Positions 5,012-36,439 of a stretch of 64,000 nucleotides of DNA are shown piece by piece; within the stretch, counting starts at the first letter, position 1; every line of letters starts with the position of its first letter. The notes under the pieces were generated by a model that did no database searches, had not been told where the DNA came from, and saw only the letters and a program-made list of their open reading frames with translations. A program made the translations under genes and the position numbers. The stretch comes from an uncultured Cryomorphaceae bacterium (GTDB lineage: Bacteria > Bacteroidota > Bacteroidia > Flavobacteriales > Schleiferiaceae): the NCBI GenBank assembly GCA_937120475.1, contig CAKZJV010000007.1, forward strand, positions 572,068 through 636,067, given 5' to 3'.

Positions 5012-6403
5012 ATGAAAAAGCTAGTACTCAGTCTTTTATTATTACCCATTTTTATCGCTCAAAGCTCCGCCAACCACATTGTAGGTGCAGAACTCAACTA
5101 CCGCATAGATGCGGCCGGAGATATTATTTTCACAGCAAATTTATATGGAAGACTCTCCCCACAAGGGTCCATTACATTTGGTGGTGGGACGGTACAAATC
5201 ACCAATAATGCAGGTATCAATATAAATATTCCCTTTGTTAAAGAAGATACTCTTCAATCGAGTATTGCGGTACCTTATGGTGTCAGGCGCAGGCAATACC
5301 AGGGAAAGGTTAATGTTTCTTCCCTAAACTGCAACAACTGCACCTTCAGTTTTTCCTATTGTTGCCGCAGTGCTTCCGCTAATTGGAATAATTCAACGGG
5401 TGTGTGGCTGGATGTTCAGGCTTTTTTGGATCTTTCAGCGGTCAATTCCTTTCCTTATTCCGGTCCATCTTTTCTGAGCGAACCCATGTATGCATTTCCG
5501 CAGGATACCCTATGGAAATACGACCTTTTGCTCTTCGATGCGGATGGGGATTCCACCTACACTTCGTTGGTCATTCCTTCCACACCGAACTATTCACTAC
5601 CTCCTTCCAATCCATCGGGCATTATTAATTTAAGCCCAGAGGGGATATTTAGCTGGAATGCTCCGGCTTCAGGAACCTACAGCCTTATTTATAAAGTTGA
5701 AAAATTTAACTCTGCAGGTGTATTAACGGGCAGTAGTACCCGTGATGTGCTCCTGGGCGTTAACCTGGATAGCTCTTTGTACGGCTACTCAATACTTCCC
5801 CCCAATATTTCCAATACCCTGGGTGGTATTCCCCTGGTTGATTTCACCGGAGATTCTACCAACCTTTTTACGCTCCCCTTTTATTTGAATGATACCAATG
5901 CTCAAATAGGCGTTACCGTTTCAGGCGCACCTTTTGAATATCAAAATTCCGATGCCGCGTTTACCGTAGCCAAGCTCAAGCGAAATAGTGATACTTTGAT
6001 GGCTGTTTTCAGTTGGAGTCCGCAGGCCGCAAGAAAAAGAGATGAGCCTTACCGGGTGGCCTTCAGTTTTTACGATGGTGCCTTTACCTATGATTACAGC
6101 GTTTACCTTACGGTGAATTCAGTAGTTGGCCAGAAGGAAAATCCCGTTAATTCCCCATTTTCCACCCTTTTCCCTAACCCCAGTAACGGAGAAGTAAACC
6201 TGGGTATCAGCGAAAACTGGTCGTCCGGTAAGTTGGAAATCCGAGCCTACAACACCTCCGGACAGCTTGTTTACCAGGAACATTTGCAAAATATTCAGCC
6301 GGGTGAAAACCTCCGCCTGTCTAAAAAATTCGAAAATGGCTTCTACCTCGTTCAATTAAAAGGTGATAAGCGCCAGGAAACCTTACCGCTATTAGTTCAT
6401 TAG
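5012..6403 (+). CDS. secreted protein with T9SS C-terminal sorting domain (Por_Secre_tail)
   Basis: Signal peptide. C-terminus FPNPSNGEVNL...GFYLVQLKGDKRQETLPLLVH is typical of a type A T9SS C-terminal domain. Confidence 0.7.
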   Translation: MKKLVLSLLLLPIFIAQSSANHIVGAELNYRIDAAGDIIFTANLYGRLSPQGSITFGGGTVQITNNAGININIPFVKEDTLQSSIAVPYGVRRRQYQGKVNVSSLNCNNCTFSFSYCCRSASANWNNSTGVWLDVQAFLDLSAVNSFPYSGPSFLSEPMYAFPQDTLWKYDLLLFDADGDSTYTSLVIPSTPNYSLPPSNPSGIINLSPEGIFSWNAPASGTYSLIYKVEKFNSAGVLTGSSTRDVLLGVNLDSSLYGYSILPPNISNTLGGIPLVDFTGDSTNLFTLPFYLNDTNAQIGVTVSGAPFEYQNSDAAFTVAKLKRNSDTLMAVFSWSPQAARKRDEPYRVAFSFYDGAFTYDYSVYLTVNSVVGQKENPVNSPFSTLFPNPSNGEVNLGISENWSSGKLEIRAYNTSGQLVYQEHLQNIQPGENLRLSKKFENGFYLVQLKGDKRQETLPLLVH

Positions 6404-6415
6404 CCTTTTACATTT

Positions 6416-6913
6416 ATGAAAAAAGTATTCTTAGCACTTTGCCTTGGACTATTTACAACTTCTCTCCTAAAAGCTCAATCCAAACTACCCGCCTCTTATT
6501 TAAACGTTGGCCTGGGGGTTGGAATGAACTATGGCATAATAGGAACCAAAACGGTTATAGGCTATAAAAACTCCGGCCTGCTGGTTGGCCTTGGTTATTT
6601 ACCGGGTGGTTTTACGGGTTACGAAGTAGGCGCTCAACTGGGCATAAATTGGTTTTTCGCCAATTTTGGCTACGGTACCATAGGTACTTACCAGGTAAAC
6701 AATGAAGACCCTCAGGTTACGGAGGCTTTTAACTTAATGGTGGGAGCAATGATAGGGCTCGGCCAGAGTAAGCGAACTTTTATTGATCTTGGTGTAGGCC
6801 ATACCTTTGGAGCTCCGGCTATTGAGTCGCCATTAGGTGAGATCGAACAGAATGCATTCACCATTGCTTTAGGCGTAGGATACCGCTTTGGAACCATCAA
6901 AAAGAGAGATTAA
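6416..6913 (+). CDS. small Gly-rich secreted or outer-membrane protein
   Basis: Signal peptide ending KAQS. Gly-rich beta-type sequence. Confidence 0.45.
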   Translation: MKKVFLALCLGLFTTSLLKAQSKLPASYLNVGLGVGMNYGIIGTKTVIGYKNSGLLVGLGYLPGGFTGYEVGAQLGINWFFANFGYGTIGTYQVNNEDPQVTEAFNLMVGAMIGLGQSKRTFIDLGVGHTFGAPAIESPLGEIEQNAFTIALGVGYRFGTIKKRD

Positions 6914-6943
6914 AAAAGCGGGACAACATACTTTAATTCTAAT

Positions 6944-7978
6944 ATGAATATGGAGTTCCGGTCACTTTACATCATTCTGTTATTCTTCCTGTACGGTGCT
7001 GATGTTTACGCACAGGACACCCCTTACTGGTATAGCTTAAAAACCGGCTCTAAGGCCAGCTTGCGGGGCTTGGCGGCAGTTTCTGAAAAAGTATGCTGGG
7101 CCAGCGGTTCGGAAGGCACGGTTTTACGAACCGTTGATGGTGGCCAAAACTGGCAGGATGTTTCGGTGCCCGGAATGAGCGCACTGCAATTTCGCGATAT
7201 CCAGGCCTTCGGGCCCGACACGGCCTTGATACTGTCGGCCGGGCTGCCCGCCATAATCTGCCGCACTACCAATGGTGGGCAAATCTGGGATACCGTTTTT
7301 TACAGCGTGCAAGAGGGTTTGTTTTTTGATGCCTTCGACTTTTGGAATCAAGACAGAGGTATTGCCTTTAGCGATGCTCCCAAGGATCAATTGTACTTGA
7401 TAGAGACTATGGACGGTGGTAAAAACTGGACTCCCCTGCCCCCGGAAAATTTGCCGCGTGTACTTCCTAAGCAAGGAGGCTTTGCCGCGTCTGGCACCTG
7501 TTTGAAAACCTTTGGGCCCGGAAAAGTGATTATTGGCCTGGGAGGTGCGGAAGCTACAGTATTAGTTTCCGAAGACTATGGTCGAAGCTGGTACCATACC
7601 GTAGCTCCACTTGACCAGGGAGAGCCCTCGAAGGGCATCTTTTCCTTTGACTTTATAAACGAAAAAGGTTTTTGCGTGGGTGGTGATTATCAGGGCGACT
7701 CCCTCACCCGGTTTTCCATTGCCAAAACTACCGATGGTGGTAAAAGATGGACCGCAGTAAAGGCTTCCGGTATTTTTGGAGAGTACCGCTCCTGCATTGC
7801 CTACATTGACGAACAAAGATTAGTTGCTACCAGCCGCAATGGTTGCAGTTATTCCAAAAACGGTGGGAGAAGCTGGCAAAGTTTAAGCGGTTCCTTTTAC
7901 ACGGTTAGTGTGGGAAAAGATGGTGCTGTTTGGGCATCAGGACCCGAAGGAAAGGTGGGTATTTTAAGTTTCCGGTAA
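6944..7978 (+). CDS. BNR/Asp-box repeat protein (Ycf48-like or sortilin-type beta-propeller)
   Basis: Repeated S/T-x-D-G-G-x-x-W motifs (VDGGQNW, TNGGQIW, MDGGKNW, TDGGKRW, KNGGRSW). Signal peptide. Confidence 0.65.
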   Translation: MNMEFRSLYIILLFFLYGADVYAQDTPYWYSLKTGSKASLRGLAAVSEKVCWASGSEGTVLRTVDGGQNWQDVSVPGMSALQFRDIQAFGPDTALILSAGLPAIICRTTNGGQIWDTVFYSVQEGLFFDAFDFWNQDRGIAFSDAPKDQLYLIETMDGGKNWTPLPPENLPRVLPKQGGFAASGTCLKTFGPGKVIIGLGGAEATVLVSEDYGRSWYHTVAPLDQGEPSKGIFSFDFINEKGFCVGGDYQGDSLTRFSIAKTTDGGKRWTAVKASGIFGEYRSCIAYIDEQRLVATSRNGCSYSKNGGRSWQSLSGSFYTVSVGKDGAVWASGPEGKVGILSFR

Positions 7979-7989
7979 TGTCATAAAAT

Positions 7990-8019
7990 AAGGGGCTGGT
8001 TTAAACCAGCCCCTTTTAT
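7990..8019. terminator. bidirectional rho-independent terminator hairpin
   Basis: AAGGGGCTGGTTTAAACCAGCCCCTT followed by TTTT, lying between converging genes. Confidence 0.6.
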
Positions 8020-8046
8020 TATAAGCCAAACGTAATGTAAGCTTGT

Positions 8047-8484
8047 TTAATAGATATGAATATGCCCGGGACCACTTCTACAGTAGGCCGTCCACAGGAA
8101 ATTCATCGTTGACGGACAACCGTTACAGCCTCCGGTAGAAACGCTACCTGATGTAGGTGCTCCATAACCGGGACAGGAAACACAAGACGGGTGACCATCC
8201 GTATCCAGGGCCTGGCCCCAAACACAAGCTCCACTGCCATAGGGAAGTGGAGTGATTTCAGCATACACCCACTCCTCTGAACCAGGAGCAGTTGCAGGAA
8301 CACTGGCTCCGGAAACCACGGTAAAGTTCTGAACGGTCGCATCGGCACAACTGCTGCCCGGGTCTTTGGCATACAATTGCACCAACACATCGCAACTGGT
8401 ACCGTTTTCAAGTAAAAGATAGTTTTGTGCATAAGCACCGGAGGCCATAAGAAACAGGCCTGCCACAAATGAGAGAATTTTCAT
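8047..8484 (-). CDS. small secreted Cys-rich protein, a distant member of the Cys-rich family at 30980, 35591 and 36020
   Basis: Signal peptide (ASGAYAQ). About 12 Cys residues. Layout resembles the paralog family (compare ...VVSGASVPATAPGSEEWVY...). Confidence 0.5.
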   Translation of the reverse strand: MKILSFVAGLFLMASGAYAQNYLLLENGTSCDVLVQLYAKDPGSSCADATVQNFTVVSGASVPATAPGSEEWVYAEITPLPYGSGACVWGQALDTDGHPSCVSCPGYGAPTSGSVSTGGCNGCPSTMNFLWTAYCRSGPGHIHIY

Positions 8485-25276: not shown

Positions 25277-25308
25277 AACCTTTTGGATACTTACAATCCA
25301 AAAGGTTT
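25276..25308. terminator. bidirectional terminator hairpin between converging genes
   Basis: AAACCTTTTGGAT-ACTTACA-ATCCAAAAGGTTT, a 13-bp stem overlapping both stop codons. Confidence 0.55.
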
Positions 25309-25759
25309 AGCAGGAGAGTTGGTAGAAGAGGATGGCAGCCGTAAGCACAACGGGAATTAGGTAAAAGGGCAAGAGAGTATGGGAAAACATGATCCTTAAG
25401 GTACTTGGGGGATCAGTTATTTTTTCGGGCTGCCGATCAAGGGTTTTTAGATCGTATAGATATTGATCCATTGTAGGGCGGTGTTGTATCAACCATTCGT
25501 AGATTCTGCGGAACTTGCGCTCTTTTTGTAAAAAGAAGGCATCCAGGTACCAGAAGCAAAATACCGGCACTAACAAACTGAGCGAAAGCAATAAGCCTAC
25601 GATACTCTTTTCCAGCAGCAAAGCATCTTTACCCAGCACAATAACGGCCATAAAAATACCGATGGCCCATCCTTTTACTTTAAAGGCATTATCAGCCATG
25701 CGCTTGATCGCGTCTTGTAATAAGTCCAGTTCTTTATGAATTTGTTCTTGTGTGGGCAT
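25307..25759 (-). CDS. small multi-TM membrane protein, putative effector partner of the TIR protein
   Basis: 150 aa. Soluble ~30-aa N-terminus followed by two or three hydrophobic helices. The gene overlaps the upstream LRR-Roc-COR-TIR gene by 26 nt, so they form an operon. Confidence 0.55.
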   Translation of the reverse strand: MPTQEQIHKELDLLQDAIKRMADNAFKVKGWAIGIFMAVIVLGKDALLLEKSIVGLLLSLSLLVPVFCFWYLDAFFLQKERKFRRIYEWLIQHRPTMDQYLYDLKTLDRQPEKITDPPSTLRIMFSHTLLPFYLIPVVLTAAILFYQLSC

Positions 25760-28700
25760 CGTCTTTTGGTTGGTTTTCTTCTAAAGGTTCTGTTTTGTAG
25801 CGGTGGGGTTCTTTAATGGCTTTTTCAAGGTATTGGATCACCTTCGTCCAGGCTTCATCCCTATCGGTATGGGCGGTTACGGGTTTCGCCTTTAGCGGCA
25901 TATTGATCTCGGCAAAGGGCAATTCATCTATCACGCAATGGCGCAGCATTACAGGCATCACCACTATTTCCTTGGCGTAATGCTCATCTTCTCCTTTATG
26001 ACGTTTCATAGTAATGGAAAGTTCTTCGGTCCAGATGTAATCGGTGGCAATGAAATCGGAGGACACCAACAAGATGATCACATCGGCTTTCTCCAACTCT
26101 TCCTTAATGCGAGGGTCCCAGTTTTCCCCGGCCAGCAATTCTCGGTCGTGCCAGGAGGAGATCAAACCTCTGCGTTTGAGGCTCATCAGGTGCTTATCCA
26201 GTTCTTCACGGTACAGGCTGTCTTTGGAAGAATAGGAAATAAACACCTTTTTCATGCGGAATTGTAGGGGTTTTACCACCTTCAAAATCTCCTCAAACTG
26301 GTTGATCTCAAAACGCCTGACTCGCTTTAAGGGCCGATTGTGCTCCTCTGCTTTTAAAACCTCATGCTGAAAAACGTGGATGTTGTTTTCCACTTTAGTG
26401 AGTAAGAGGTGCAGTGGAATAAAATTCTCTCCACCGGGGCTTACCTCCAGGTTTACAAAGGGATGTTCACGATAATGAAATTCCCAATCAAATTCATTTT
26501 GAAGTTGATAGGATACACCATCTCGACCTTGAATAATAGTTTGAGATTTTAAAGGGAAACCTTCGGTTAATCTCATACTTGTATTTATTAGGTCTATAGT
26601 ATCCAAAACGGATAGTAGTAAGCGGGAGGGTTTGCCCTGCTGCTCCACCTGGTAAAACTCAATCACGTTCAACGCACGGTTTAGCTTCACCATCAGGCTC
26701 TCGGTTTTCTTATCTTCATTTTCCCGGCTTAGTATAAAACCGTTGCGCCAGTAGGCGTATTTGCGCCCTCCCTTAGCATCATGGTACTTAAAATCCGCTT
26801 TCAGATCTGAAAAAATGCGAATGATGAAGTTGCGGTGTAAAAAGCCCTGGTAGTTGTATCGGTATAAAGCCCGTTTAAAATGGGGTAAGAACAAACGGGT
26901 GGAAGTATCGGCTTCCAGGCTGAGGTATTGCGGAGCTACGTAACGATCACCCAGCTTAAAAACGATCTGGTTTTTATCTAGAAAATGTTTCACTAGTTGA
27001 ATTACCTCCGGTTTTTCGCTTTTTAGAGCCCTGTTCAGGTGCTCCTGATCAAATTCACCGGCTTCCAGGCCACGCGCAGTTTTGGCCACGGAGTGGCTTA
27101 GCACTTTGTAGATCCTTTGGGACAATTCCTTTGGCTTCAGTACCACATAGTCCTCTGTCTCTTCACTACCTTTCTTTTTAAGCCGGGCGGTCAGCACCAG
27201 GCCTTTCACTTCCATTACCTGTAATGCCGTGAATAAACTATTGTTATCTTCCCCAGGGACCTGGAACAGTTGGGTTAAATCCTCTTTGCGGACATACCAG
27301 GGAAAGGCTTCCACTTGTTTTACTTTTCCGGTTTTTTCCAGCCCCACCCCCTGCAACAGGCGGTTGCGGATGGCTTTATGGCCTTCCAGTATGGTACCGG
27401 CCAAACCGGGGATGAGGTCATTTAATAACACCGGCACCAGGCCAATACGGTGTGGATCATCCGGGTTCAACGAAAGTTCTATGGCGGTATCTATAAAGGA
27501 AAAGTACTTTTTCAGATGGAGAGTATCCACTCCGGATGCAGCCGGTTTAGCGGGCTTCTTATCGACTTTCGCTTCTTCTTTTTCCACCTTCTCTTTAGGG
27601 AAGCTGTTTTGCAGTAACAGCAAGCTGGTGGCATCTTCCAATGCCTCATCCGTATTGGTATGTTTTTTATACGATAGAGAAGAAAAATAATTTACCGCAC
27701 CCAGCCAATACTCCACCGGAAAATTTTCGTTTTTCAGGCGCTGATCATTTTCGATGGGCTCGTAAAAATTGCGATCCGGCCGCCACAGTAACAGGTACAG
27801 GCTGTTGTGGCTGAAAAAGAGGTGGTGGGTATCGTGGTAATATTCCTGCCCGCCAAAATCAAACAGGTTCAGGTAGTACTCCGTAGAACCTAGTTTATAC
27901 GGAAACCGTTTGATGGCCAAGCCGTGCGTACTTTTTTGTTTGCGGGTTTTCACGTTCTTCACTTGTAACCGCGACAAGTAATCCGCCAGGGTAGTTTTAC
28001 CGCTGCTACCGTTGCCGATGAGCAATACTTTTAATTCATTATCCGGTACTTTTTGTTCTCCTTCCTCCAAACGTTGAAAATAATCCAGTACCGCCTCCCT
28101 ACCCGCTTCTATTTTTTCCAGTAAATCAGCTGCTAAGGGATTATTCTTCAAAATGACCCCTCCCTCGTTAAGCTTCCATTCTATTTTAAACGCCAGCTTT
28201 TCGTTTCCTTCCAGAAGGGGTATAAGCGGCCGTACATCCTCAATTTTATTATGGGAGAGATCAAGTTCGGTCAACTGGCTCAGCCCGGATAAGGGACGGA
28301 TATCGCTAATTTTATTACTGGAAAGAAGTAGTAAGGTCAACTGGCTCAGGCCAGATAAGGGGCGGATATCGCTGAGTTTATTCTCGGAAAGACCAAGTTG
28401 GTTCAACTGACTCAGACCGGATAAGGGTTTGATATCGCTGATTCGATTCCCGGAAAGATCAAGTCGGGTCAACTGGCTTAGCCCGGATAAAGGGCTGATA
28501 TTATCAAGCTGATTCCCGGAAAGATCAAGTTCGGTCAACTGGCTCAGGTCGGATAAGGGACGGATATCGATGAGTTGATTCCCGGAAAGGTCAAGTTCGG
28601 TCAACTGGCTCAGACGCGATAAGGGGCGCATATCGCTGAGTTGATTATAGGAAAGACCAAGTTGGTTCAACTGGCTCAGCCCGGATAAGGGGCTGATACT

Positions 28701-28952
28701 ATCAAGCTGATTCCCGGAAAGATCAAGTTCGGTCAACTGGCTCAGGCCCGATAAGGGTTTGATATCGATGAGTTGATTATTGGAAAGATCAAGTTCGGTC
28801 AACTGGCTTCCCAGTTTTTCAATTTCTTCGGGAATACGTTGCAAGCGCAGTGCGCTTAAATCTAAATTATCTGCTTTACTTTGATATGCGTCTTCTATGC
28901 GCCTGAGCGCTACATCATAAGCGGAATCATCTTTATCACTGTTTTTTTGCAC
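25734..28952 (-). CDS. LRR-Roc(GTPase)-COR-TIR multidomain protein (ROCO-family protein with a C-terminal TIR domain)
   Basis: About nine 22-aa leucine-rich repeats (LSGLSQLTELDLSGNQL). Roc G1 motif GNGSSGKTT and G3 motif DFGGQE. Long COR-like middle region. C-terminal TIR (KVFISYSSKD...SWHD...ILLVS...WTEEL). Confidence 0.8.
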   Translation of the reverse strand: MQKNSDKDDSAYDVALRRIEDAYQSKADNLDLSALRLQRIPEEIEKLGSQLTELDLSNNQLIDIKPLSGLSQLTELDLSGNQLDSISPLSGLSQLNQLGLSYNQLSDMRPLSRLSQLTELDLSGNQLIDIRPLSDLSQLTELDLSGNQLDNISPLSGLSQLTRLDLSGNRISDIKPLSGLSQLNQLGLSENKLSDIRPLSGLSQLTLLLLSSNKISDIRPLSGLSQLTELDLSHNKIEDVRPLIPLLEGNEKLAFKIEWKLNEGGVILKNNPLAADLLEKIEAGREAVLDYFQRLEEGEQKVPDNELKVLLIGNGSSGKTTLADYLSRLQVKNVKTRKQKSTHGLAIKRFPYKLGSTEYYLNLFDFGGQEYYHDTHHLFFSHNSLYLLLWRPDRNFYEPIENDQRLKNENFPVEYWLGAVNYFSSLSYKKHTNTDEALEDATSLLLLQNSFPKEKVEKEEAKVDKKPAKPAASGVDTLHLKKYFSFIDTAIELSLNPDDPHRIGLVPVLLNDLIPGLAGTILEGHKAIRNRLLQGVGLEKTGKVKQVEAFPWYVRKEDLTQLFQVPGEDNNSLFTALQVMEVKGLVLTARLKKKGSEETEDYVVLKPKELSQRIYKVLSHSVAKTARGLEAGEFDQEHLNRALKSEKPEVIQLVKHFLDKNQIVFKLGDRYVAPQYLSLEADTSTRLFLPHFKRALYRYNYQGFLHRNFIIRIFSDLKADFKYHDAKGGRKYAYWRNGFILSRENEDKKTESLMVKLNRALNVIEFYQVEQQGKPSRLLLSVLDTIDLINTSMRLTEGFPLKSQTIIQGRDGVSYQLQNEFDWEFHYREHPFVNLEVSPGGENFIPLHLLLTKVENNIHVFQHEVLKAEEHNRPLKRVRRFEINQFEEILKVVKPLQFRMKKVFISYSSKDSLYREELDKHLMSLKRRGLISSWHDRELLAGENWDPRIKEELEKADVIILLVSSDFIATDYIWTEELSITMKRHKGEDEHYAKEIVVMPVMLRHCVIDELPFAEINMPLKAKPVTAHTDRDEAWTKVIQYLEKAIKEPHRYKTEPLEENQPKDDAHTRTNS
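28150..28860 (-). repeat. in-frame tandem 66-bp coding repeats (LRR units) with very high nucleotide identity
   Basis: Repeated ...ggaaagatcaagttcggtcaactggctcagcccggataaggg... units seen directly in the sequence. Confidence 0.7.
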
Positions 28953-29087: not shown

Positions 29088-29131
29088 AAAAAAGATCAAA
29101 AGCCCCGCCAGGTTTTCAGAACCTGACGGGC
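29088..29131 (-). terminator. rho-independent terminator downstream of rtcB
   Basis: GCCCGTCAGGTT-CTGAAA-AACCTGGCGGGGC hairpin followed by a T-run on the minus strand. Confidence 0.55.
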
Positions 29132-29137
29132 CTATGT

Positions 29138-30535
29138 TCAATCCACCTCGTGAAACCGCACATCGCCACACATCCTCACGATCTTTGGGGTAAATGATCC
29201 CAGGATGTCCACGAGCTCCTGCTGGCTGTTCATCACGGTATGGATGTCCTTATAAGCCATAGGTGCTTCATCCAGTCCGGAACCGATCACCTCCACCCCA
29301 TGATCATTCAGGTGGCGCACCACCTCTTTATAGTCCAGGGTTTTCTTGGCCTGGGTTCGGCTCATCACCCGCCCTGCCCCGTGTGAAGTGGAGTTGATAG
29401 AGTGTGCTATACCGCGCCCCCGTACAATGTACCCGGGAGCCGTCATGGAGCCGGGAATGATCCCCAACACGCCTTCACCGGCCGGGGTGGCACCTTTACG
29501 GTGTACGATCACTTCCTCGCCTTTGGCGTTCTTCTCTTTCCAGGCGAAGTTGTGATGGTTTTCCACCCTGGCCAATGGTGTGGTTCGTAAGCCTACGGCC
29601 ATGCGTTCATGGATCTGGTGATGACAGGCCGAAGCGTAGTCACCGGCCAGGTTCATGGCCGCCCAATATTCCTTACCGGCATCGGTATCCATATCCAACC
29701 AGGCTAGGTGCCGCGCTTCCTGCGGAAGCTTGGTAGTGTTCATAGCCAGATTGGTATAATGGCGGGCAATGTTCGCCCCCAATCCACGGGAACCGGAATG
29801 CGACAACAGGCCCATATACGTACCAAGCGGCAGGTTGAACTCATTATCCTCTTCCGTAATACGCACTTCACCAAATTCTACAAAGTGGTTACCCCCACCG
29901 GACGAACCAATCTGCCGCCAGGCGCGGTCTTTCAGGTTTTTTACCACTTCCAGTTCTTTGAATTCATCGCGCTCAAAAATTTCGTGATCCATGATGTATT
30001 TGAAAGAAGCATTTCCGAAACGGGTGTTGTTGTTCAGCATTTTCTTTAAAGCCTCCTTATCAGTTTCCAACCGCTCTTTCGGCATATCGTAAATGGATAA
30101 GCACATACGGCAGCCGATGTCCACACCTACCCCATACGGTATCACCGAATTTTTGGTAGCCAATACACCCCCGATCGGTAAACCGTAACCCTGGTGGGCA
30201 TCCGGCATTAAAGCACCGGAATCCGCTACCGGTAATTTCATAGCGGTGTACATCTGGTGCAGGGCTCCTTGTTCAATATGCTCTTCACCGTAGATCTTGA
30301 AATCCAGGTGCTTTTCACGCAGCGCAATCGGCTCTCTTTTCGCTTCTTCCACCAATGCTTTGGCAATAGCTCCGAAGCTTTCATCTTCCAGGTACGCTTC
30401 CGGCTCTTGTGCTACTTTTTGCAGCGTTTCCAGATAGGCTTTTTTGCTGTATTGGGTATGGGGTTTCAACGCCATTCCGAAGGCCGGGCCTTCCGGAAAG
30501 TTGATGTTCTTTAAGTCTTTAGATGTTATTTTCAT
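29138..30535 (-). CDS. rtcB: RtcB-family RNA ligase (3'-phosphate/5'-OH)
   Basis: GGGNHFVEFGEV and STSHGAGR motifs, about 465 aa. Start taken at MKITSKDL. The longer track ORF reaching 30646 would overlap the repeat element in the promoter region. Confidence 0.75.
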   Translation of the reverse strand: MKITSKDLKNINFPEGPAFGMALKPHTQYSKKAYLETLQKVAQEPEAYLEDESFGAIAKALVEEAKREPIALREKHLDFKIYGEEHIEQGALHQMYTAMKLPVADSGALMPDAHQGYGLPIGGVLATKNSVIPYGVGVDIGCRMCLSIYDMPKERLETDKEALKKMLNNNTRFGNASFKYIMDHEIFERDEFKELEVVKNLKDRAWRQIGSSGGGNHFVEFGEVRITEEDNEFNLPLGTYMGLLSHSGSRGLGANIARHYTNLAMNTTKLPQEARHLAWLDMDTDAGKEYWAAMNLAGDYASACHHQIHERMAVGLRTTPLARVENHHNFAWKEKNAKGEEVIVHRKGATPAGEGVLGIIPGSMTAPGYIVRGRGIAHSINSTSHGAGRVMSRTQAKKTLDYKEVVRHLNDHGVEVIGSGLDEAPMAYKDIHTVMNSQQELVDILGSFTPKIVRMCGDVRFHEVD

Positions 30536-30803: not shown

Positions 30804-30826
30804 ACTGCGCAGTCTTTTTGCGCTAT
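30804..30826. promoter_or_regulatory. operator-like inverted repeat, copy 1 (ACTGCGCA-N7-TGCGCtAT, slightly degenerate)
   Basis: Shares a 20-nt identical core, ACTGCGCAGTCTTTTTGCGC, with the copy at 33581. Lies about 155 nt upstream of the gene at 30980. Confidence 0.4.
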
Positions 30827-30979: not shown

Positions 30980-31393
30980 ATGAAAACTCTATTCTATTCG
31001 GCAATCTTTTGCCTTTTTACTTTTTCCTCGTTTGCGCAGAGCACCATCCAGGTAATTAACAGCACCTGCGAAGACAAGGAGGTTCGTGTTTACTTTGATG
31101 ATGCTACTGCCGCCTGCACGGGAACACCGGTAAATTGTACTCCCATCCAGGTGATTACCCAAATAGTACCCGCTGGAGGAAGTTTCGTTTTCAGTGCTGC
31201 CTGTGGCGGAGCCACTCTTTACGAAGTGTACGCACAATCTAATTTTAACGGTTCCGCTTCATCCTGGTACCCTAGCGGCTGCCGCGGTAATTACAACGGT
31301 CAAACACCCATTATCGATCCATGTCCCGGCCCTAATATGGAGTTTGCCGTAGTACCCGGTACTCCAACCATTTACGAAATATTCAATTTCTAA
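30980..31393 (+). CDS. small secreted Cys-rich protein, family member 1
   Basis: Signal peptide (SSFAQS). Conserved block TIQVINSTCEDKEVRVYFDD. Eleven Cys residues. Paralogs at 35591 and 36020, pseudogene at 42727. Confidence 0.6.
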   Translation: MKTLFYSAIFCLFTFSSFAQSTIQVINSTCEDKEVRVYFDDATAACTGTPVNCTPIQVITQIVPAGGSFVFSAACGGATLYEVYAQSNFNGSASSWYPSGCRGNYNGQTPIIDPCPGPNMEFAVVPGTPTIYEIFNF

Positions 31394-31453: not shown

Positions 31454-32581
31454 CTACCGGGAGAAGATCTCCTTGAGTTGATCTACCACCTGGTTTCCTC
31501 CTGAAAGGGAAATACTGTTGATCTTTTCTGCGATCTTCTCGGTGTATTCCATCTCTTTCAGTTTAAAGAGCATAGGATTGTCTTCCATCAGTTTAGCGGT
31601 ATTCAGTAAGCTCCGGGTAGAAGCCGTTTCTTCCCGCCTGGTAATCACGTTGGCCTGTGCTTTTTTCTCAGCCACCAATACCTGGTTCATGATCTCCTTT
31701 ACCTCCCCGGGTAAAATGATGTCCCTGATTCCGCAGGCACTCACTTTTACGCCCAGGTTTACCGCGTTTTCCTTAACGGCAGCCAATACATATTCGGCTA
31801 CGGCCTCCTTCTTTTCCAACAATTCATCCAGGGTCAACGTACCGATGAACTCCCGTAAAGCAAGCTGCATCAATACATACAATTGCTTTTCGAAATCCTT
31901 GTTATCCACCAAAGCCTTTTCAATATCGGTGACCTTATACTGGGTGTAAAAATTCACCCGCAAGGCCGCCTTATCTTTGGTGAGAATCTCCTGGCCGCTC
32001 ACTTCCATTTGCAATTGTCGCATATCCGTTTTCAAAACGTTAATGGGAATGGTGTTTTTCCAAAAGAGGTAATCGCCTTTTTCCAGTACCTTTTCAAACT
32101 TGCCGTTGATGAAAAGAATACCTTTTTCGTAGGAAGCTACATGGTAGGCCCGGATGTAAGGCAGTATTACACCTTTCTGCAAAATTTCCCCGCTGATGGA
32201 CTCGGTGATCTCCACTTTACTCAAATCAGCTTTAATGAACGAGTGCTCTACCAAGCCTTTCCAATAGGCGTAGCGACCGGGTAAAAGCACGGATTTAAAA
32301 TTGCTATGCTCAAAACGCAGGGCTATCTCATTGTCCGCCACATCCACCAGCGTTAAAGCATTGGCCAATGCCTCATCCTGCAGGTAAAGGTTCAGGTTAC
32401 GGCCGGGCACAAAAGCCTGGGCCATATCATATACCACTACCGATTCAAAAGGTCCCAGCCAGTGCTTTCCGGCTGTCAACATCCTTTTGTAATCTCCGTT
32501 TTTGTACACCAGTCCAATTTTGCCGGTGTTGATCACTACTCGTTTCATCGCTTTCGAGTATTTATTGAGGTTGACTTTCAA
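31454..32581 (-). CDS. SPFH/band-7 domain protein (slipin or flotillin-like)
   Basis: SPFH-like core (…LRVNFYTQYKV…ALREFIGTLTLDELLEKKEAV…GVKVSACGIRDIILPGEV…AEKKAQANV…). Confidence 0.65.
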   Translation of the reverse strand: MKVNLNKYSKAMKRVVINTGKIGLVYKNGDYKRMLTAGKHWLGPFESVVVYDMAQAFVPGRNLNLYLQDEALANALTLVDVADNEIALRFEHSNFKSVLLPGRYAYWKGLVEHSFIKADLSKVEITESISGEILQKGVILPYIRAYHVASYEKGILFINGKFEKVLEKGDYLFWKNTIPINVLKTDMRQLQMEVSGQEILTKDKAALRVNFYTQYKVTDIEKALVDNKDFEKQLYVLMQLALREFIGTLTLDELLEKKEAVAEYVLAAVKENAVNLGVKVSACGIRDIILPGEVKEIMNQVLVAEKKAQANVITRREETASTRSLLNTAKLMEDNPMLFKLKEMEYTEKIAEKINSISLSGGNQVVDQLKEIFSR

Positions 32582-32961
32582 CCCCAGGGTTAAACATAAA
32601 TTTCACTTTTAAAGAAAGCTTCGGGCTACAAGCCATCCCTGCCGCGCGGAGCCCGGATTGAGAAAGGTTGTGTTTGGGTAGTTGCCTGCTATCCAACTTT
32701 CGGGGAAAACCTGGTTTTCCTTCCGGATGGCCGCCTGCAAGTAGCCAAACGCCCCCATCGGTATCTTCCGGTCTGCGTAGCGCGGCAGAGACTGTTCAGA
32801 AAAACTTCCGAAAAAGAATTTCCCAACGGGCCTGCACCCCTCGGCTTTCAGGTGATCCTTTTTCGAAGGGATCAGCTTCCTGATCGGATAGATTATGAGT
32901 CTATCAACCATCTTCCGTGACAGGGAAGTGTTAGGTACTCTGCCAACTGAGTTACCCCGGA

Positions 32962-33031
32962 ATATTCCGGGAGAAGGAATCGAACCTTCGCATCCTAATC
33001 TACTGCTCTAACCAACTGAGCTACCCCGGTT
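32962..33031 (-). tRNA. tRNA-like sequence, possibly a degenerate tRNA or pseudo-tRNA
   Basis: Canonical D-arm (TAGCTCAGTTGGTTAGAGC) and T-arm (GAAGGTTCGATTCCTTC), but the anticodon arm is too short and the acceptor stem is imperfect. Its 5' 20 nt are duplicated at 32945-32964. Confidence 0.3.
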
Positions 33032-33076
33032 GCCCGGGAACGGGAATCGAACCCGTGACCCGTAGGTTGCAGTAAA
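33032..33076 (-). other. tRNA 3'-half-like fragment (T-arm plus acceptor 3' strand) with no matching 5' half
   Basis: ACGGGTTCGATTCCCGT T-arm followed by TCCCGGGC. No complementary acceptor 5' strand found upstream. Confidence 0.3.
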
Positions 33077-33226
33077 TCAAATTACCATGAAGCGGCATAC
33101 CAACGCTGATGGCGTGGCACCACGGGGCTATACAGAAACCCTCGTCCGGTCTTCATACCTAACCGATTTACTATTTTCCGTGCCTGAAAGCACTATATTT
33201 TAAAGAACTCTTTTAATCCTTATCGA

Positions 33227-33388: not shown

Positions 33389-33400
33389 GGACTTTATTTG

Positions 33401-33483
33401 TGGGAGTGATAAGATTCGAACTTATTGAGCCAAAAGCACCGGTTTTACAGACCGGCCTACCTCACCATCGGTAGCGCACTCCC
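33401..33483 (-). tRNA. tRNA-Tyr (anticodon GTA), type II with a long variable arm
   Basis: Folded by hand: acceptor GGGAGTG/CACTCCC, D-arm CTAC...GTAG, anticodon stem CCGGT/ACCGG with loop CTGTAAA, T-arm ATAAG-TTCGAAT-CTTAT. CCA is not encoded. Confidence 0.7.
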
Positions 33484-33507
33484 CTAACTTTTAAGAACTT
33501 TCGCAAA

Positions 33508-33547
33508 CCCCGCTGTTCTGCCTCTTTACTCCTCCTGAACAGCGGGG
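33508..33547. other. strong hairpin (11-bp stem, 18-nt loop) between the tRNA-Tyr 5' end and the WYL-regulator gene
   Basis: CCCCGCTGTTC-N18-GAACAGCGGGG. Confidence 0.5.
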
Positions 33548-33580
33548 TGTGTTTCAAATACAGGACAAAGGTGAAACCCC

Positions 33581-33603
33581 ACTGCGCAGTCTTTTTGCGC
33601 AGT
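33581..33603. promoter_or_regulatory. operator-like perfect inverted repeat ACTGCGCA-N7-TGCGCAGT, about 38 nt upstream of the WYL-regulator gene
   Basis: Perfect 8-bp arms. Position matches that expected for an autoregulatory WYL/BrxR-type operator. Confidence 0.45.
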
Positions 33604-33640: not shown

Positions 33641-35368
33641 GTGCCCGTTAACCGTAATGCCCTTATCCGCTACCGCACCCTTGATAACTGCCTGCGTAAC
33701 CGTTTCAGAAAGTGGACTTTAGAAGACCTGATTGAGGCCTGCTCGGATGCCCTGTACGAGTATGAAGGCATTGATAAGGGGGTAAGCCGCAGAACGGTGC
33801 AAATGGATATCCAGATGATGCGCAGTGATAAACTGGGTTACAATGCACCCATCGTGGTTTTGGAAAAAAAGTATTACACCTACGAGGACCCGGATTATTC
33901 CATTACCAATATTCCGCTCACCGACCAAGACCTGATTAAACTTACCGAGGTAACTGAGATCCTGCGACAGTTTAAGGGCTTTACCCATTTTCAGGATCTG
34001 GATGGAATGGTGAACCGCCTTGAAGACAAGATCTACACCGCTAAAACCCACCAACAACCCATTATTGATTTTGAAAAGAATGAAAACCTGCGGGGCCTGG
34101 AATACATTGACCCGCTTTACAAGGCCATCCAGCAGAAGCATTGCGTTAAAGTGGCCTACCAAAGCTTTAAAGCCAGGGTGCCGCAGGAGATTACCTTCCA
34201 CCCTTTTCTCCTTAAAGAATTCCGAAACCGCTGGTTTTTGCTGGGTGCTCATAATAAAGGAAAAACAACTATGCTTTTAGCGCTGGACCGGATTACCTCG
34301 GTTTCGCCTTTAAAAGCCCTGGCTTGTTGCCAACCCGGTTTTGATGTACAGAACTATTTCAAGGATGTGGTAGGTGTTACCGTTAATCAAGGCGATACCA
34401 CTGAAAAGATTATCCTTTTTGTAGATCGTAGAAACGCCCCTTACGTGATCACCAAACCTATTCATCCCAGCCAGGAAGTGCTGGAGAGCAATAAGTTCGG
34501 TATCATTATCTCCTTGCACGTTCAACTCAATTACGAATTGGAACGGGAGATACTGGGCTTTGGCCCGCAAATGAAAGTACTGGCCCCCCACCATTTCAAA
34601 AGACGAATGAAGAACCTCCTACGAGAGGCTGTGGATACTTATGAATCAGAGATCACTACGCCTCGTATGAAACAATCCCAAAACCGATTGCAAAAAAGGG
34701 GTTACGACATACTACAGCAGGTTTTTACCACCCGTGAAACCGATAAAATGAAACATATTATCGGTAAATACCTCAATAGTGTTAATGAAAATCCCGGGGG
34801 TAAGAAAAGTATTTCCATCCGGCAACTGCTGCAAAAAATACCGGAATTGGAACGATTGATTTTCAACGCCAATATGGATAAACTCCTGCAAGAATTGATT
34901 CCTGGATCCCGGCTCACCAAGGCCATATATTTTGATAAGCCCCACTTGAGCAACTGGTATGTTACCTGGCACCAGGACATTACGATAAATGTCAAAGAAC
35001 GTATTGATACGGAAGGTTTTTCCGGATGGACCAGTAAAGAGGGGTTCTTTGCCGTTTGTCCACCCGAAGAGTACCTTCACAAAACTCTTACTATCCGTAT
35101 TCACCTCGATGATTCGCTGGAGAGCAATGGTACCCTGAAGGTGATACCGGGTACCCATAAAAAGCGGCTCTCCGATGATGAAATTCAACTGATCACCCAA
35201 AACACCAGCCCTGCTGTTTGCGAGATTCCTAAAGGTGGTGTTCAGTTTATGAAACCTTTACTTCTCCATAGCTCCTCCAAATCCAAAGCACAACGTTCTC
35301 GCAGGGTGATCCACCTGGAATTTTGTACGGCTGAATTACCGGTAGGTTTGGAATGGAGTGAAAATTAG
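33641..35368 (+). CDS. WYL-domain transcriptional regulator (HTH-WYL-WCX) fused to a C-terminal PhyH-like Fe(II)/2OG dioxygenase domain
   Basis: N-terminus NALIRYRTL...VSRRTVQMDIQMM (wHTH). WYL-like core FHPFLLKEFRNRWFLLG. C-terminal ~240 aa with WHQD...NGTLKVIPGTHK...RRVIHLEF, an HxD...H oxygenase signature. Single uninterrupted 575-aa ORF. Confidence 0.6.
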   Translation: MPVNRNALIRYRTLDNCLRNRFRKWTLEDLIEACSDALYEYEGIDKGVSRRTVQMDIQMMRSDKLGYNAPIVVLEKKYYTYEDPDYSITNIPLTDQDLIKLTEVTEILRQFKGFTHFQDLDGMVNRLEDKIYTAKTHQQPIIDFEKNENLRGLEYIDPLYKAIQQKHCVKVAYQSFKARVPQEITFHPFLLKEFRNRWFLLGAHNKGKTTMLLALDRITSVSPLKALACCQPGFDVQNYFKDVVGVTVNQGDTTEKIILFVDRRNAPYVITKPIHPSQEVLESNKFGIIISLHVQLNYELEREILGFGPQMKVLAPHHFKRRMKNLLREAVDTYESEITTPRMKQSQNRLQKRGYDILQQVFTTRETDKMKHIIGKYLNSVNENPGGKKSISIRQLLQKIPELERLIFNANMDKLLQELIPGSRLTKAIYFDKPHLSNWYVTWHQDITINVKERIDTEGFSGWTSKEGFFAVCPPEEYLHKTLTIRIHLDDSLESNGTLKVIPGTHKKRLSDDEIQLITQNTSPAVCEIPKGGVQFMKPLLLHSSSKSKAQRSRRVIHLEFCTAELPVGLEWSEN

Positions 35369-35590: not shown

Positions 35591-36010
35591 ATGAAACATT
35601 TATTTTTTACTCTATTCTTTTTATCCATAAGCCTGTCTTATGCGCAGACTACGGTTACCGTTAGCAACAATAGTTGTGAAGGTAAAGAGGTAACCGTATT
35701 TTTTGATGACCCTATTCCTGCCTGCATAACGGCTACGCCCGTAACATGTACAGTGGTTCACAGTATAACACAAACTTTAGCCGGTGGCGATGTAGGCACT
35801 TTTGCGGTACCTTGTAGCCTTGAGGAGTATGAAGTTTATGTAGAATCGGTGAACTGCGGTATATGTACTGCCGCCTGGGTAAGACCATCTTGTGGCTCTT
35901 CCTACCCTGGCCCGAGTCCTGCTGCCGATAATTGTACGGGTCCAACGGCTATGTTCAGGGTGGATAAAATTGCCGTCAGCGCTCACACCTATGAAATCAA
36001 TAACTATTAA
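35591..36010 (+). CDS. small secreted Cys-rich protein, family member 2
   Basis: Signal peptide. TVTVSNNSCEGKEVTVFFDD conserved block. Ten Cys residues. Confidence 0.6.
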   Translation: MKHLFFTLFFLSISLSYAQTTVTVSNNSCEGKEVTVFFDDPIPACITATPVTCTVVHSITQTLAGGDVGTFAVPCSLEEYEVYVESVNCGICTAAWVRPSCGSSYPGPSPAADNCTGPTAMFRVDKIAVSAHTYEINNY

Positions 36011-36019
36011 ATCTTCATC

Positions 36020-36439
36020 ATGAAATATTGCCTATTTATTACTCTTGTTTTTACAGGATTATTGCTTAAATCTCAAACTACAATTACCGTTATCAACAAT
36101 ACTTGTGAACCCAAAGAGGTCACCGTTTTTTTTGACGATCCCACTCCAAATTGTGTGGCCAGCCCTACCAGTTGTACAACTTTAACCAGTATTACTCAAA
36201 CCATTGATCCTGATGATGACTTTGCTAATTTCAGTGTTCCTTGTAGCCTGGATACCTACCGCGTAACCGCACAATCAGTTAACTTATCCAGTGCCACGGC
36301 TACCTGGTACAGGAGTTCCTGCGGAACTTCCAATACGGGTTCAACGCCTTCAGCAGACGCCTGCCCCGGCACAGGTGGTTACTTTAGTGTAGATCAAAAT
36401 CCCACAAACTCCAATGAGTTTGACATTAGCAATTATTAA
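36020..36439 (+). CDS. small secreted Cys-rich protein, family member 3
   Basis: Signal peptide. TITVINNTCEPKEVTVFFDD block. Terminator hairpin at about 36456-36490 resembles the one at 31409. Confidence 0.6.
   Translation: MKYCLFITLVFTGLLLKSQTTITVINNTCEPKEVTVFFDDPTPNCVASPTSCTTLTSITQTIDPDDDFANFSVPCSLDTYRVTAQSVNLSSATATWYRSSCGTSNTGSTPSADACPGTGGYFSVDQNPTNSNEFDISNY

Follow-up and report, generated by a model that had tools for sequence, protein, structure and literature searches.

A WYL–oxygenase fusion protein widely conserved in Bacteroidota as a probable regulator of RtcB RNA-repair genes

The window analysed here (the whole 64,000-nucleotide stretch of DNA) contains a reading frame, 33641..35368, that runs through 575 codons without interruption or internal stops and joins a WYL-type transcription regulator to a Fe(II)/2-oxoglutarate (2OG) oxygenase. 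The gene and the domains of its product, with the evidence for each, are as follows:

33641..35368, plus strand: WYL-WCX-PhyH fusion gene (575 aa, GTG start, stop included, N-terminal winged helix-turn-helix, wHTH); ORF list, Pfam, full-length homologues
33641..34090, plus strand: N-terminal winged HTH (approximately residues 1-95) and helical linker (approximately 96-150); AlphaFold secondary structure, Foldseek, column conservation
34100..34306, plus strand: WYL domain (residues 154-222); PF13280, 42.4 bits, cut-off 21.8
34403..34630, plus strand: WCX domain (residues 255-330); PF25583, 36.5 bits, cut-off 23.9, and alignments with the C-domain of DriD
34697..35365, plus strand: PhyH-type Fe(II)/2OG oxygenase domain (approximately residues 353-575; Pfam match 385-556); PF05721, 45.2 bits, cut-off 22, and Foldseek

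The preliminary description of this locus had remarked that WYL regulators and oxygenases are separate proteins in all described cases, and had raised the possibility of a frameshift merging two genes. The first remark agrees with the literature: no published description of a WYL-PhyH fusion was found in a literature search, with a mention in Burroughs & Aravind 2016 being possible. The chance that an assembly or sequencing artefact joined two genes is, on the other hand, as good as nil. The full-length architecture of about 575 residues is present in 120 of 120 listed homologues (58-100% identity) and in all 80 species-level loci kept from at least 582 relatives; the homologues derive from many separate assemblies, complete chromosomes among them, and an alignment of 25 homologues shows no gaps at the junction around 34600-34700. 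Because the full-length architecture is conserved and the junction is gap-free, a frameshift is excluded, and on this comparative sequence evidence the fusion gene is genuine and widely conserved in Bacteroidota. It is not rare: it is abundant in the sequence databases, under generic names.

The N-terminal ~330 residues, first described as an HTH-WYL-WCX regulator, are indeed of that type. Besides the Pfam matches to WYL and WCX, the top Foldseek matches for residues 1 to ~340 are DriD, PafBC and CapW, with full-length DriD and PafBC aligning over ~340 columns and DriD-ssDNA complexes coming closest. No Pfam HTH model matched in the Pfam scan; the AlphaFold model of the fusion protein has three helices and a β-hairpin in residues 5-81. 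The winged HTH and linker are the best-conserved part of the protein, with a mean column conservation of 0.885 over residues 1-95 and 0.82 over residues 96-150. Within the WYL domain, Y173, S175, K192, R197, W198, D216 and R217 are invariant among 71 orthologues, while R195 is kept in 69 and R179 in 61. The residues with which DriD contacts ssDNA are only partly conserved: in the alignment, DriD D209/R210 correspond to D216/R217 and DriD Y192 to F199, and the contacts R204 and R207 are replaced by M211 and A214.

A linker of about 20 residues separates WCX from the oxygenase. The preliminary description had assigned a PhyH-type WHQD...H signature to the C-terminal ~240 residues, and this holds for a domain of ~230 residues with a PF05721 match, Foldseek matches and a conserved triad. 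The WHQD motif occupies residues 443-446 (nt 34967-34978), with H444-x-D446 at 34970-34978, the distal H543 at 35267-35269, and R554/R555, from their position the probable 2OG-carboxylate residues, at 35300-35305. H444, D446, H543 and R554/R555 show no variation in alignment A1, and 67-70 of 71 orthologues retain them, so the domain looks like a functional Fe(II)/2OG oxygenase, and the protein as a whole like a WYL-type DNA-binding regulator with an apparently active enzyme attached. An NCBIfam scan gave only sub-threshold hydroxylase matches and no functional name.

Is the oxygenase essential to what the regulator does? Relatives without PhyH have the same HTH, and the same operator and Band-7–RtcB setting (described below), as the fused forms, and the oxygenase is thus best seen as an add-on; in some lineages the domain has been inactivated or lost, which suggests an accessory role. 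A single origin of the fusion was also considered, and a neighbour-joining tree of the first 150 residues interleaves fused and unfused forms without resolution. An HTH-PhyH variant lacking WYL occurs in only two Echinicola proteins and a third sequence (P0169). The Echinicola variant, with partly eroded catalytic residues and no RtcB nearby (the translation of the gene at the locus is not exactly identical to the query), is treated here as a degenerate derivative.

Divergently from the fusion gene runs a leftward unit:

33504..33551, minus strand: hairpin with 15-nt arms between the leftward promoter and the tRNA-like gene; inverted repeat, with similar sequence in the closest relatives (loci L006-L008)
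33400..33483, minus strand: tRNA-Tyr(GTA)-like gene, first of the unit; only 40 bits on the Rfam tRNA model
32965..33083, minus strand: Y-RNA-like/tRNA-like element preceding the Band-7 gene; YrlA model, 49 bits (E=8.5e-9), short of its gathering score, 69
31454..32581, minus strand: SPFH/Band-7 protein gene; Band_7, 111.6 bits
29138..30535, minus strand: RtcB RNA ligase gene, likely start ATG 30535 (465 aa); RtcB, 277 bits; the mechanical ORF reaches GTG 30646
29104..29130, minus strand: terminator-like hairpin (11 pairs and a T-run) ending the rtcB transcription unit; terminator scan

In the tRNA-Tyr-like gene, C8 and C14 replace U8 and A14; it is a candidate 'band-7-associated tRNA' (10.1101/312249). 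The Y-RNA-like element overlaps a 40-bit tRNA-model match, has a fold z-score of -3.4, and is conserved in the same three relatives. An RtcB-Band-7-'b7a-tRNA' RNA-repair system was predicted by Burroughs & Aravind 2016, according to 10.1101/312249. Its defining members—RtcB, Band-7 and an adjacent tRNA-like RNA gene—are all present in the window.

Three elements, two of them between the divergent genes and one upstream of rtcB, would tie this unit to the fusion protein:

33581..33603, no strand assigned: predicted operator 1 ACTGCGCAGTCTTTTTGCGCAGT (core 33583-33601), common to the two divergent promoters; inverted repeat, orthologue upstream regions, pattern scan
33566..33573, minus strand: −7-like box CACCTTTG of the promoter on the repair side (leftward); conservation profile with 71 operator copies as anchor
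30804..30826, no strand assigned: predicted operator 2 ACTGCGCAGTCTTTTTGCGCTAT (one mismatch; core 30806-30824), accompanied by a leftward CAAAG box of its own; pattern scan

The inverted repeat reported earlier upstream of the fusion gene is exact, consisting of ACTGCGCA-N7-TGCGCAGT with 8-nt arms that are 100% complementary; since TGCGCA is itself palindromic, the element is also a direct repeat of TGCGCAGT with a 13-nt spacing. It belongs to a conserved dyad/direct-repeat element of 19-23 bp (consensus TGCGCAGTCTTTTTGCGYA, invariably in one orientation), present in 45 of 72 orthologue upstream regions and mostly starting 54-62 nt (~57) before the start codon. In the other 27 a strict operator is absent within 160 nt, and several of these carry one further upstream. 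When the pattern TGCGYA-N7-TGCGYA is scanned with one mismatch allowed, the 64-kb window yields four strand matches (two sites) against 0.53 expected. The second site, operator 2, lies directly upstream of rtcB in the same orientation as operator 1 and with the same spacing to CAAAG. Such duplication is not confined to the window: of 53 other loci, 24 have an operator no more than 400 nt (~40-110 nt) before the RtcB start. About 16 of these operators are separate second copies; in the rest RtcB abuts the regulator gene and the operator is common to both. In one further arrangement (locus L001), an operator copy precedes the tRNA-like gene and Band-7.

Promoters of Bacteroidota are unlike σ70-type promoters, and both promoters were read with the Bacteroidota −33/−7 consensus. 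(A σ70-type scan, unsuited to Bacteroidota promoters, gave 8 sites against a shuffled-control mean of 11.5.) In the leftward promoter, 12 nt separate CAAAG from the operator core, and the minus strand has no TTTG at −33. In the anchored conservation profile, 71 of 71 operator copies stand in one orientation and the leftward CAAAG box is conserved. On the opposite side, TTTG at 33593-33596 falls inside operator 1 and is a possible −33 box of the regulator's own promoter.

The linkage of regulator and repair genes extends well beyond this genome. RtcB was found divergently upstream of the fusion gene in four of four sampled loci, and in 50 of the 64 loci with at least 5 kb of upstream DNA; 27 of those have Band-7 and 23 have RlaP. 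Two exceptional loci carry Pnkp and Hen1 instead of RtcB, and these are among the ten in which RtcB, Band-7 and RlaP are all absent within 10 kb. Taken with the operators, the comparative context makes it most likely that the targets of the fusion protein are the adjacent RtcB RNA-repair genes and not a phage-defence island. Non-canonical tRNA-like genes near operators include Tyr, Arg, Pro, Phe, Gln and Leu types.

The oxygenase domain could suggest a quite different function. Its Foldseek matches (HygX, AviO1, EctD, GriE, KanJ and proline hydroxylase) act on small molecules, as amino-acid, ectoine and aminoglycoside hydroxylases, and by sequence it is closest to stand-alone enzymes that lie outside any RNA-repair context. 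(Three loci of these relatives showed no RNA-repair or WYL neighbours and only variable small ORFs, and so give no clue to the substrate.) The protein might then be mainly a small-molecule enzyme, with PhyH hydroxylating a metabolite, WYL serving autoregulation only, and the adjacency of RtcB being inherited synteny. This is very improbable, however, since separate operators stand directly before rtcB despite the intervening genes, both in the window and in the ~16 other loci, since the association outlasts rearrangement and even replacement of the ligase type by Pnkp/Hen1, and since the PhyH-less relatives retain operator and context.

The preliminary description had also placed the protein among the typical gatekeepers of defence islands. 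As a regulator of the BrxR/CapW type it would repress adjacent anti-phage genes, for example that of the TIR protein at 25734-28952. PADLOC WYL models do match the fusion protein (E=9e-23), and PADLOC, run on the window only, places a ThsB-like TIR gene and a PDC-M50A candidate 4-8 kb from the fusion gene. However, there is no operator copy before either of these genes in the window, and the TIR gene lies beyond the strong terminator that separates its side from rtcB. Five ortholog loci were gone through gene by gene, and their tables list neither TIR nor Roc/COR genes; it is these five loci, and not the 80-locus tblastn survey, that this negative covers. What is conserved next to the regulator is RtcB, Band-7, RlaP or Pnkp-Hen1, that is, an RNA-repair unit and not a defence system. 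The comparative context thus largely refutes the gatekeeper reading, which is hardly credible any longer.

What, then, might the fusion protein do? The favoured reading (probability about 0.7) is that it is a one-component regulator that senses nucleic acid and controls an RtcB/Band-7/tRNA-like RNA-repair unit, as a functional analogue of RtcR. The unit under its control would comprise the tRNA-like RNA, the Y-RNA-like RNA, Band-7 and RtcB, with RlaP added or Pnkp/Hen1 substituted elsewhere. The regulator is probably dimeric, its wHTH domains binding TGCGCA-N7-TGCGYA between the back-to-back promoters. On the repair side, where a −33 box is missing, the operator would take its position, with a constant spacing to the −7-like box. 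Promoters activated by DriD likewise lack a −35 element, having a DriD site there at a fixed distance from −10 (PMC13004042). Because this geometry is that of activation by DriD and PafBC, we infer that a ligand in the WYL pocket would switch the repair genes on. On the regulator's own side, autorepression is suggested, because the −33-like TTTG sits inside the operator; DriD, too, may negatively autoregulate its own promoter (PMC9186387). An operator that overlaps a core promoter would, however, be equally compatible with simple repression, as in CapW and BrxR.

The ligand would be a single-stranded nucleic acid, with fragments arising from RNA damage favoured and ssDNA possible. Every solved WYL transcription factor is an ssDNA sensor, and CapW does not bind a poly-U RNA 7-mer (PMC11662680). 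This, along with the DriD-ssDNA complexes being the closest structural matches, would fit a DNA-damage sensor whose WYL pocket binds ssDNA and for which the RNA-repair genes are one arm of a DNA-damage response. Such a sensor seems unlikely, given that RNA-repair genes and tRNA-like RNAs are all that the conserved regulon signature contains, that no recA-, lexA- or DNA-repair-type genes were seen beside the operator in the sampled loci, and that the DriD contacts R204 and R207 are not conserved.

For the regulator of RNA repair, the part played by PhyH can be suggested with low confidence only: it may process the bound signal, or it may couple induction to O2, Fe or 2-oxoglutarate status. A fuller scheme, speculative and improbable, builds on CapW, in which the strand that is bound has its 3' end docked on WCX (PMC11662680). 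The fusion protein would sense RNA damage, and PhyH, which follows WCX, could oxidise the last nucleotide, or a damaged base, of the RNA fragment that has been captured, thereby resetting or gating RtcB induction. The operator-proximal tRNA-like genes would serve as built-in bait or as spare tRNAs, with their cleavage products as the signal. If true, PhyH acting on the signal would make this a self-contained circuit that detects, repairs and resets in response to anticodon-nuclease attack.

To our knowledge, no regulator of RtcB RNA repair in bacteria other than RtcR of Proteobacteria has been characterised, and a literature search found no other named one. The fusion protein points to an RtcB regulator for a large part of Bacteroidota, with a precise predicted operator. 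WYL domains, which in transcription factors have been shown to be ssDNA sensors, may also report RNA damage. The literature search found no earlier description of such a sensor with a catalytically intact Fe(II)/2OG oxygenase attached, and the protein offers a tractable case of an enzyme domain that modulates a nucleic-acid-sensing transcription factor or is itself targeted by one. The non-canonical tRNA-like genes and arrays, for their part, bear on how cells cope with anticodon nucleases.

Each part of this assembly resembles a known system in some respects and departs from it in others. The small PhyH hydroxylases (AviO1, HygX, proline hydroxylase H11, EctD, GriE and KanJ) have the same fold as the C-terminal domain (target-normalised TM-scores of 0.5-0.68) and the same H-x-D…H triad with a following Arg, but the identity is only 12-17%, and those are free-standing biosynthetic enzymes, whereas the domain here is tethered to a DNA-binding regulator. 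The b7a-tRNA system is matched by RtcB, the Band-7 protein and tRNA-like RNA genes in one leftward unit; compared with the system as described in 10.1101/312249, the operator and the duplicated promoter module are worked out here.

CapW and BrxR, repressors of defence systems, have the three-domain regulator core in common with the fusion protein, and their palindromic operator of ~20 bp in a bidirectional promoter beside their own gene (PMC11662680) has a counterpart in the operator predicted here. The conserved S175, R197 and R217 in the WYL pocket of the fusion protein may correspond to contact residues of CapW, to judge from motif position and not from an alignment. The conserved neighbours of the fusion are RNA-repair genes, however, and not BREX, CBASS or restriction-modification, and neither regulator has a fused oxygenase. 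DriD of Caulobacter and PafBC of mycobacteria are transcription activators with the same wHTH-WYL-WCX fold, and DriD promoters resemble the layout predicted here, with the operator in the −35/−33 place, a fixed distance from −10/−7 and no upstream box (PMC13004042). The fusion protein differs from both in its extra C-terminal Fe(II)/2OG oxygenase domain, in a regulon signature of RNA repair instead of DNA repair, and in coming from Bacteroidota.

RtcR, the CARF-AAA+ σ54 activator of rtcBA in Proteobacteria, would have the same job: encoded divergently from an RtcB RNA-repair operon, it regulates that operon in response to a ligand, and it is activated by damaged tRNAs (PMC7790460). The fusion protein is nonetheless unrelated to it, with no CARF, AAA+ or σ54-interaction domain, and no C-terminal HTH like that of RtcR, found in Pfam and NCBIfam scans, and the likeness between the two is one of function only.

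The regulator is encoded by a single uninterrupted reading frame, and the preliminary description of this frame, of its WYL and PhyH domains and of an inverted repeat ahead of it is correct in all details. The features discussed here, from left to right, are:

25307-25759, minus strand: 150-aa PDC-M50A-matching gene (candidate defence family)
25734-28952, minus strand: LRR-Roc-COR-TIR gene, 1072 aa, TIR domain matching Thoeris ThsB (E=1e-41)
29138-30535, minus strand: RtcB gene
30806-30824: predicted operator, copy 2, near-identical to copy 1, upstream of rtcB, with the leftward box at an identical 12-nt spacing
30980-31393, plus strand: Cys-rich paralogue
31454-32581, minus strand: Band-7 gene
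32965-33083, minus strand: YrlA-like/tRNA-like element (YrlA model 49 bits, E=8.5e-9, below the gathering score)
33400-33483, minus strand: tRNA-Tyr-like gene called by ARAGORN, with C8 and C14 replacing U8 and A14 (Rfam tRNA model 40 bits)
33581-33603: predicted operator, copy 1
33641-35368, plus strand: regulator gene, 575 codons, GTG start
35591-36010 and 36020-36439, plus strand: two further Cys-rich paralogues

Domain tests assign the protein to both the wHTH-WYL-WCX regulator family and the PhyH oxygenase family: the Pfam domains WYL (residues 154-222), WCX (255-330) and PhyH (385-556) each exceed the curated cut-off, and the PADLOC WYL models match at E=9e-23. (An NCBIfam scan gave hydroxylase matches only, all sub-threshold.) Could the fusion be a frameshift artefact, as had been proposed as an alternative? 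Among 5.8 billion proteins, 7,786 matches were found, and the best 120, from many independent assemblies with megabase contigs among them, are 574-615 aa long, match the query over its full length (100% coverage, 58-100% identity) and contain WYL, WCX and PhyH in every case. An artefact is excluded, because this architecture recurs across independent assemblies and the junction aligns without gaps across 25 sequences. Scanning one genome per species with N-terminal search patterns, which also count PhyH-less forms, gave at least 582 relatives. The best 80 of these were retained; they are mostly full-length (a few are interrupted by contig ends) and nearly all from Bacteroidota, namely Cytophagales, Schleiferiaceae/Cryomorphaceae and Chitinophagales/Saprospiraceae.

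Both halves look functional, judging from residue conservation and the predicted structure. In a Foldseek search of the PDB, the AlphaFold model (mean pLDDT 78) divides into two separately matching parts. Residues 1 to ~340 resemble DriD in complex with ssDNA and operator DNA, RNA polymerase-bound PafBC, and CapW. The C-terminal part resembles small-molecule PhyH-type hydroxylases (proline hydroxylase H11, HygX, AviO1, EctD, GriE and KanJ), with no AlkB-type demethylase among the 50 matches listed; these structural neighbors suggest a small-molecule substrate. In the 71 full-length orthologues, conservation is highest in the wHTH region, the WYL residues Y173, S175, K192, R197, W198, D216 and R217 are invariant, and the oxygenase residues H444, D446, H543 and R554/R555 are retained in 67-70. 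The experimentally defined ssDNA contacts of DriD (PMC9186387) fit in part: F199 takes the place of Y192 and D216/R217 that of D209/R210, while R204 and R207 have no conserved counterpart.

The conserved context of the regulator is RNA repair. RtcB lies divergently upstream in all four orthologous loci examined in full, with Band_7 in two and RlaP genes in two, and the RtcB and Band-7 genes of the window are arranged as in these loci. Counting genes on the divergent strand in the 64 species-level loci that have 5 kb or more upstream, RtcB is present in 50, Band-7 in 27 and RlaP in 23, and 54 loci have at least one of the three. The ten exceptions include two with a Pnkp-Hen1 RNA-repair cassette and four (L027, L030, L079 and L083) in which the divergent neighbor is a 690-aa AAA+/peptidase-M41 (FtsH-like) protein (~5950-8290, minus strand); in these four, a tRNA-Arg(ACG)-like gene lies between that gene and the operator. 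The suggestion that the regulator is a defence gatekeeper of the BrxR or CapW type is contradicted by this context: the RtcB linkage is conserved, and the ThsB-like TIR gene and the PDC-M50A candidate lie beyond a terminator. These two genes look like a small defence islet adjoining the repair operon; the PDC-M50A gene is downstream of the LRR-Roc-COR-TIR gene on the same strand and overlaps its 3' end.

How would the regulator be connected to the repair genes? The inverted repeat ACTGCGCA-N7-TGCGCAGT at 33581-33603 is exact, and 45 of 72 orthologous upstream regions contain TGCGYA-N7-TGCGYA, in most cases beginning 54-62 nt ahead of the start codon (consensus tACTGCGCAGTCTTTTTGCGYAGTa). Several loci that lack it there have it a few hundred nt further upstream. 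(In L038, L041, L047, L053, L059 and L071 it is displaced 300-600 nt upstream of the start codon, and GC-rich palindromic inserts of REP-type appearance, e.g. CCTCTCCTnnAGGAGAGG, lie in between, within the last ~100 nt.) All 71 operator copies, from the loci and the window, have one orientation relative to the regulator gene, with a CAAAG box (reading xAnnTTTG on the minus strand) conserved at constant spacing on the left and a TTTG inside the operator itself on the right. The palindrome, as predicted operator, belongs to a promoter module that is both directional and duplicated. Of 53 other loci, 24 have an operator no more than 400 nt (about 40-110 nt) ahead of the RtcB start; about 16 are separate second copies, and in the rest RtcB abuts the regulator gene and the operator is common to both. 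The tRNA-like gene heading the Band-7 operon in L001 has a copy ahead of it. Because copies recur at these units, they are a predicted regulon signature, and chance synteny is disfavored. Control of the RtcB repair unit by the regulator through this predicted operator is probable, at roughly 70%.

The small plus-strand gene separating rtcB from Band-7 lies to the right of operator copy 2, matching the place of the regulator gene at copy 1, and its two paralogues are just downstream of the regulator gene. All three encode Cys-rich proteins of ~138 aa that have an apparent signal peptide and match nothing in Pfam or PADLOC; none was found across 80 orthologous loci.

No paper found describes the fusion or its link to RtcB; Burroughs and Aravind (2016) was outside that search. 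According to 10.1101/312249, those authors predicted a 'band 7-associated tRNA' adjoining RtcB and a Band-7 protein. In the window, two tRNA-like elements occupy the minus strand between operator and Band-7. The YrlA-like structured region reaches ~32845-33214, is followed by further D-arm-like and T-arm-like modules on the same strand, and is 70-77% identical in L006-L008. tRNA genes flanking the regulator/RtcB module, often in arrays of 3-10, are found in 34 of 82 orthologous loci (L005, L009, L010, L014, L016, L018, L019, L026, L033, L034, L050, L051, L053, L057, L059, L064, L078 and others). The 97 such genes in ~1.4 Mb amount to about one per 15 kb; the usual bacterial density is several times lower. 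Left of the operator nearly all of them are on the minus strand, right of it nearly all on the plus strand. The recurrent anticodons (Tyr GTA, His GTG, Asn GTT, Asp GTC, Arg ACG, Lys TTT, Gln TTG and Glu TTC) are classic anticodon-nuclease targets. Many of the genes are non-canonical, including the Tyr-like gene of the window and those at L017 9770-9855, L018 13839-13910 and 15249-15323, L035 835-920, L059 9242-9314 and L085 67-139. In one sequence group of Tyr-like genes, 9/9 have C8-G9 and not U8; position 8 is G in the Pro-like genes, which also carry G14, and A in the Lys- and His-like genes of L018. An encoded CCA is absent from most, and the Rfam tRNA model gives several of them no more than 32-57 bits. 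Such genes could represent the predicted 'b7a-tRNA', or else serve as spare or bait tRNAs.

Where did the oxygenase come from? Marinilabiliales and some Flavobacteriales have PhyH-less proteins of ~340 aa that share the HTH, WYL and WCX. The two seen in context are both divergent from Band_7-RtcB and share the operator too; an RtcB-RF-1 (PrfH-like) pair comes after one of them. (This second RtcB and RF-1-family gene, at L090 9412-11519 in a Plebeiibacterium-like genome, is on the regulator's strand and resembles the RtcB2-PrfH ribosome-repair pair.) Most of the sequences nearest to the C-terminal domain are stand-alone proteins 225-250 aa long with 38-50% identity, and no RNA-repair context was found around them in the loci examined. 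From both kinds of relatives it appears that a pre-existing regulator of RtcB operons captured a free-standing enzyme. Two Flavobacteriaceae loci (L086 7001-14738, L088 1-8420) have the stand-alone relatives within same-strand runs of small ORFs, which lack Pfam matches except DUF4844 and DUF6896 and could be immunity-protein-like arrays. By sequence, the catalytic residues are intact in most lineages and the domain appears dispensable in some. Certain 527-566-aa forms (P0422-P0425) have the HxD or the distal His mutated, and a rare Echinicola form, without an RtcB nearby, is missing both WYL and WCX and shows partial erosion of the catalytic residues. The strand bound by CapW has its 3' end docked against WCX (PMC11662680); because PhyH directly follows WCX, the oxygenase might, speculatively, act on the bound signal. 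Confidence in any specific role is low.

The Bacteroidota promoter consensus is −33 TTTG / −7 TAnnTTTG. On the repair side, the operator occupies the expected −33 position, where that strand has no TTTG, and a −7-like box follows at a fixed distance. Simple repression, for which CapW and BrxR set a precedent (PMC11662680), may apply. The promoter geometry favors a regulator that activates the repair unit upon ligand binding and represses its own gene's promoter, since it is as in DriD-dependent promoters, which lack a −35 element and have the DriD site there, at a constant distance from −10 (PMC13004042). Although unrelated to RtcR, the regulator would, by inference, work like it.
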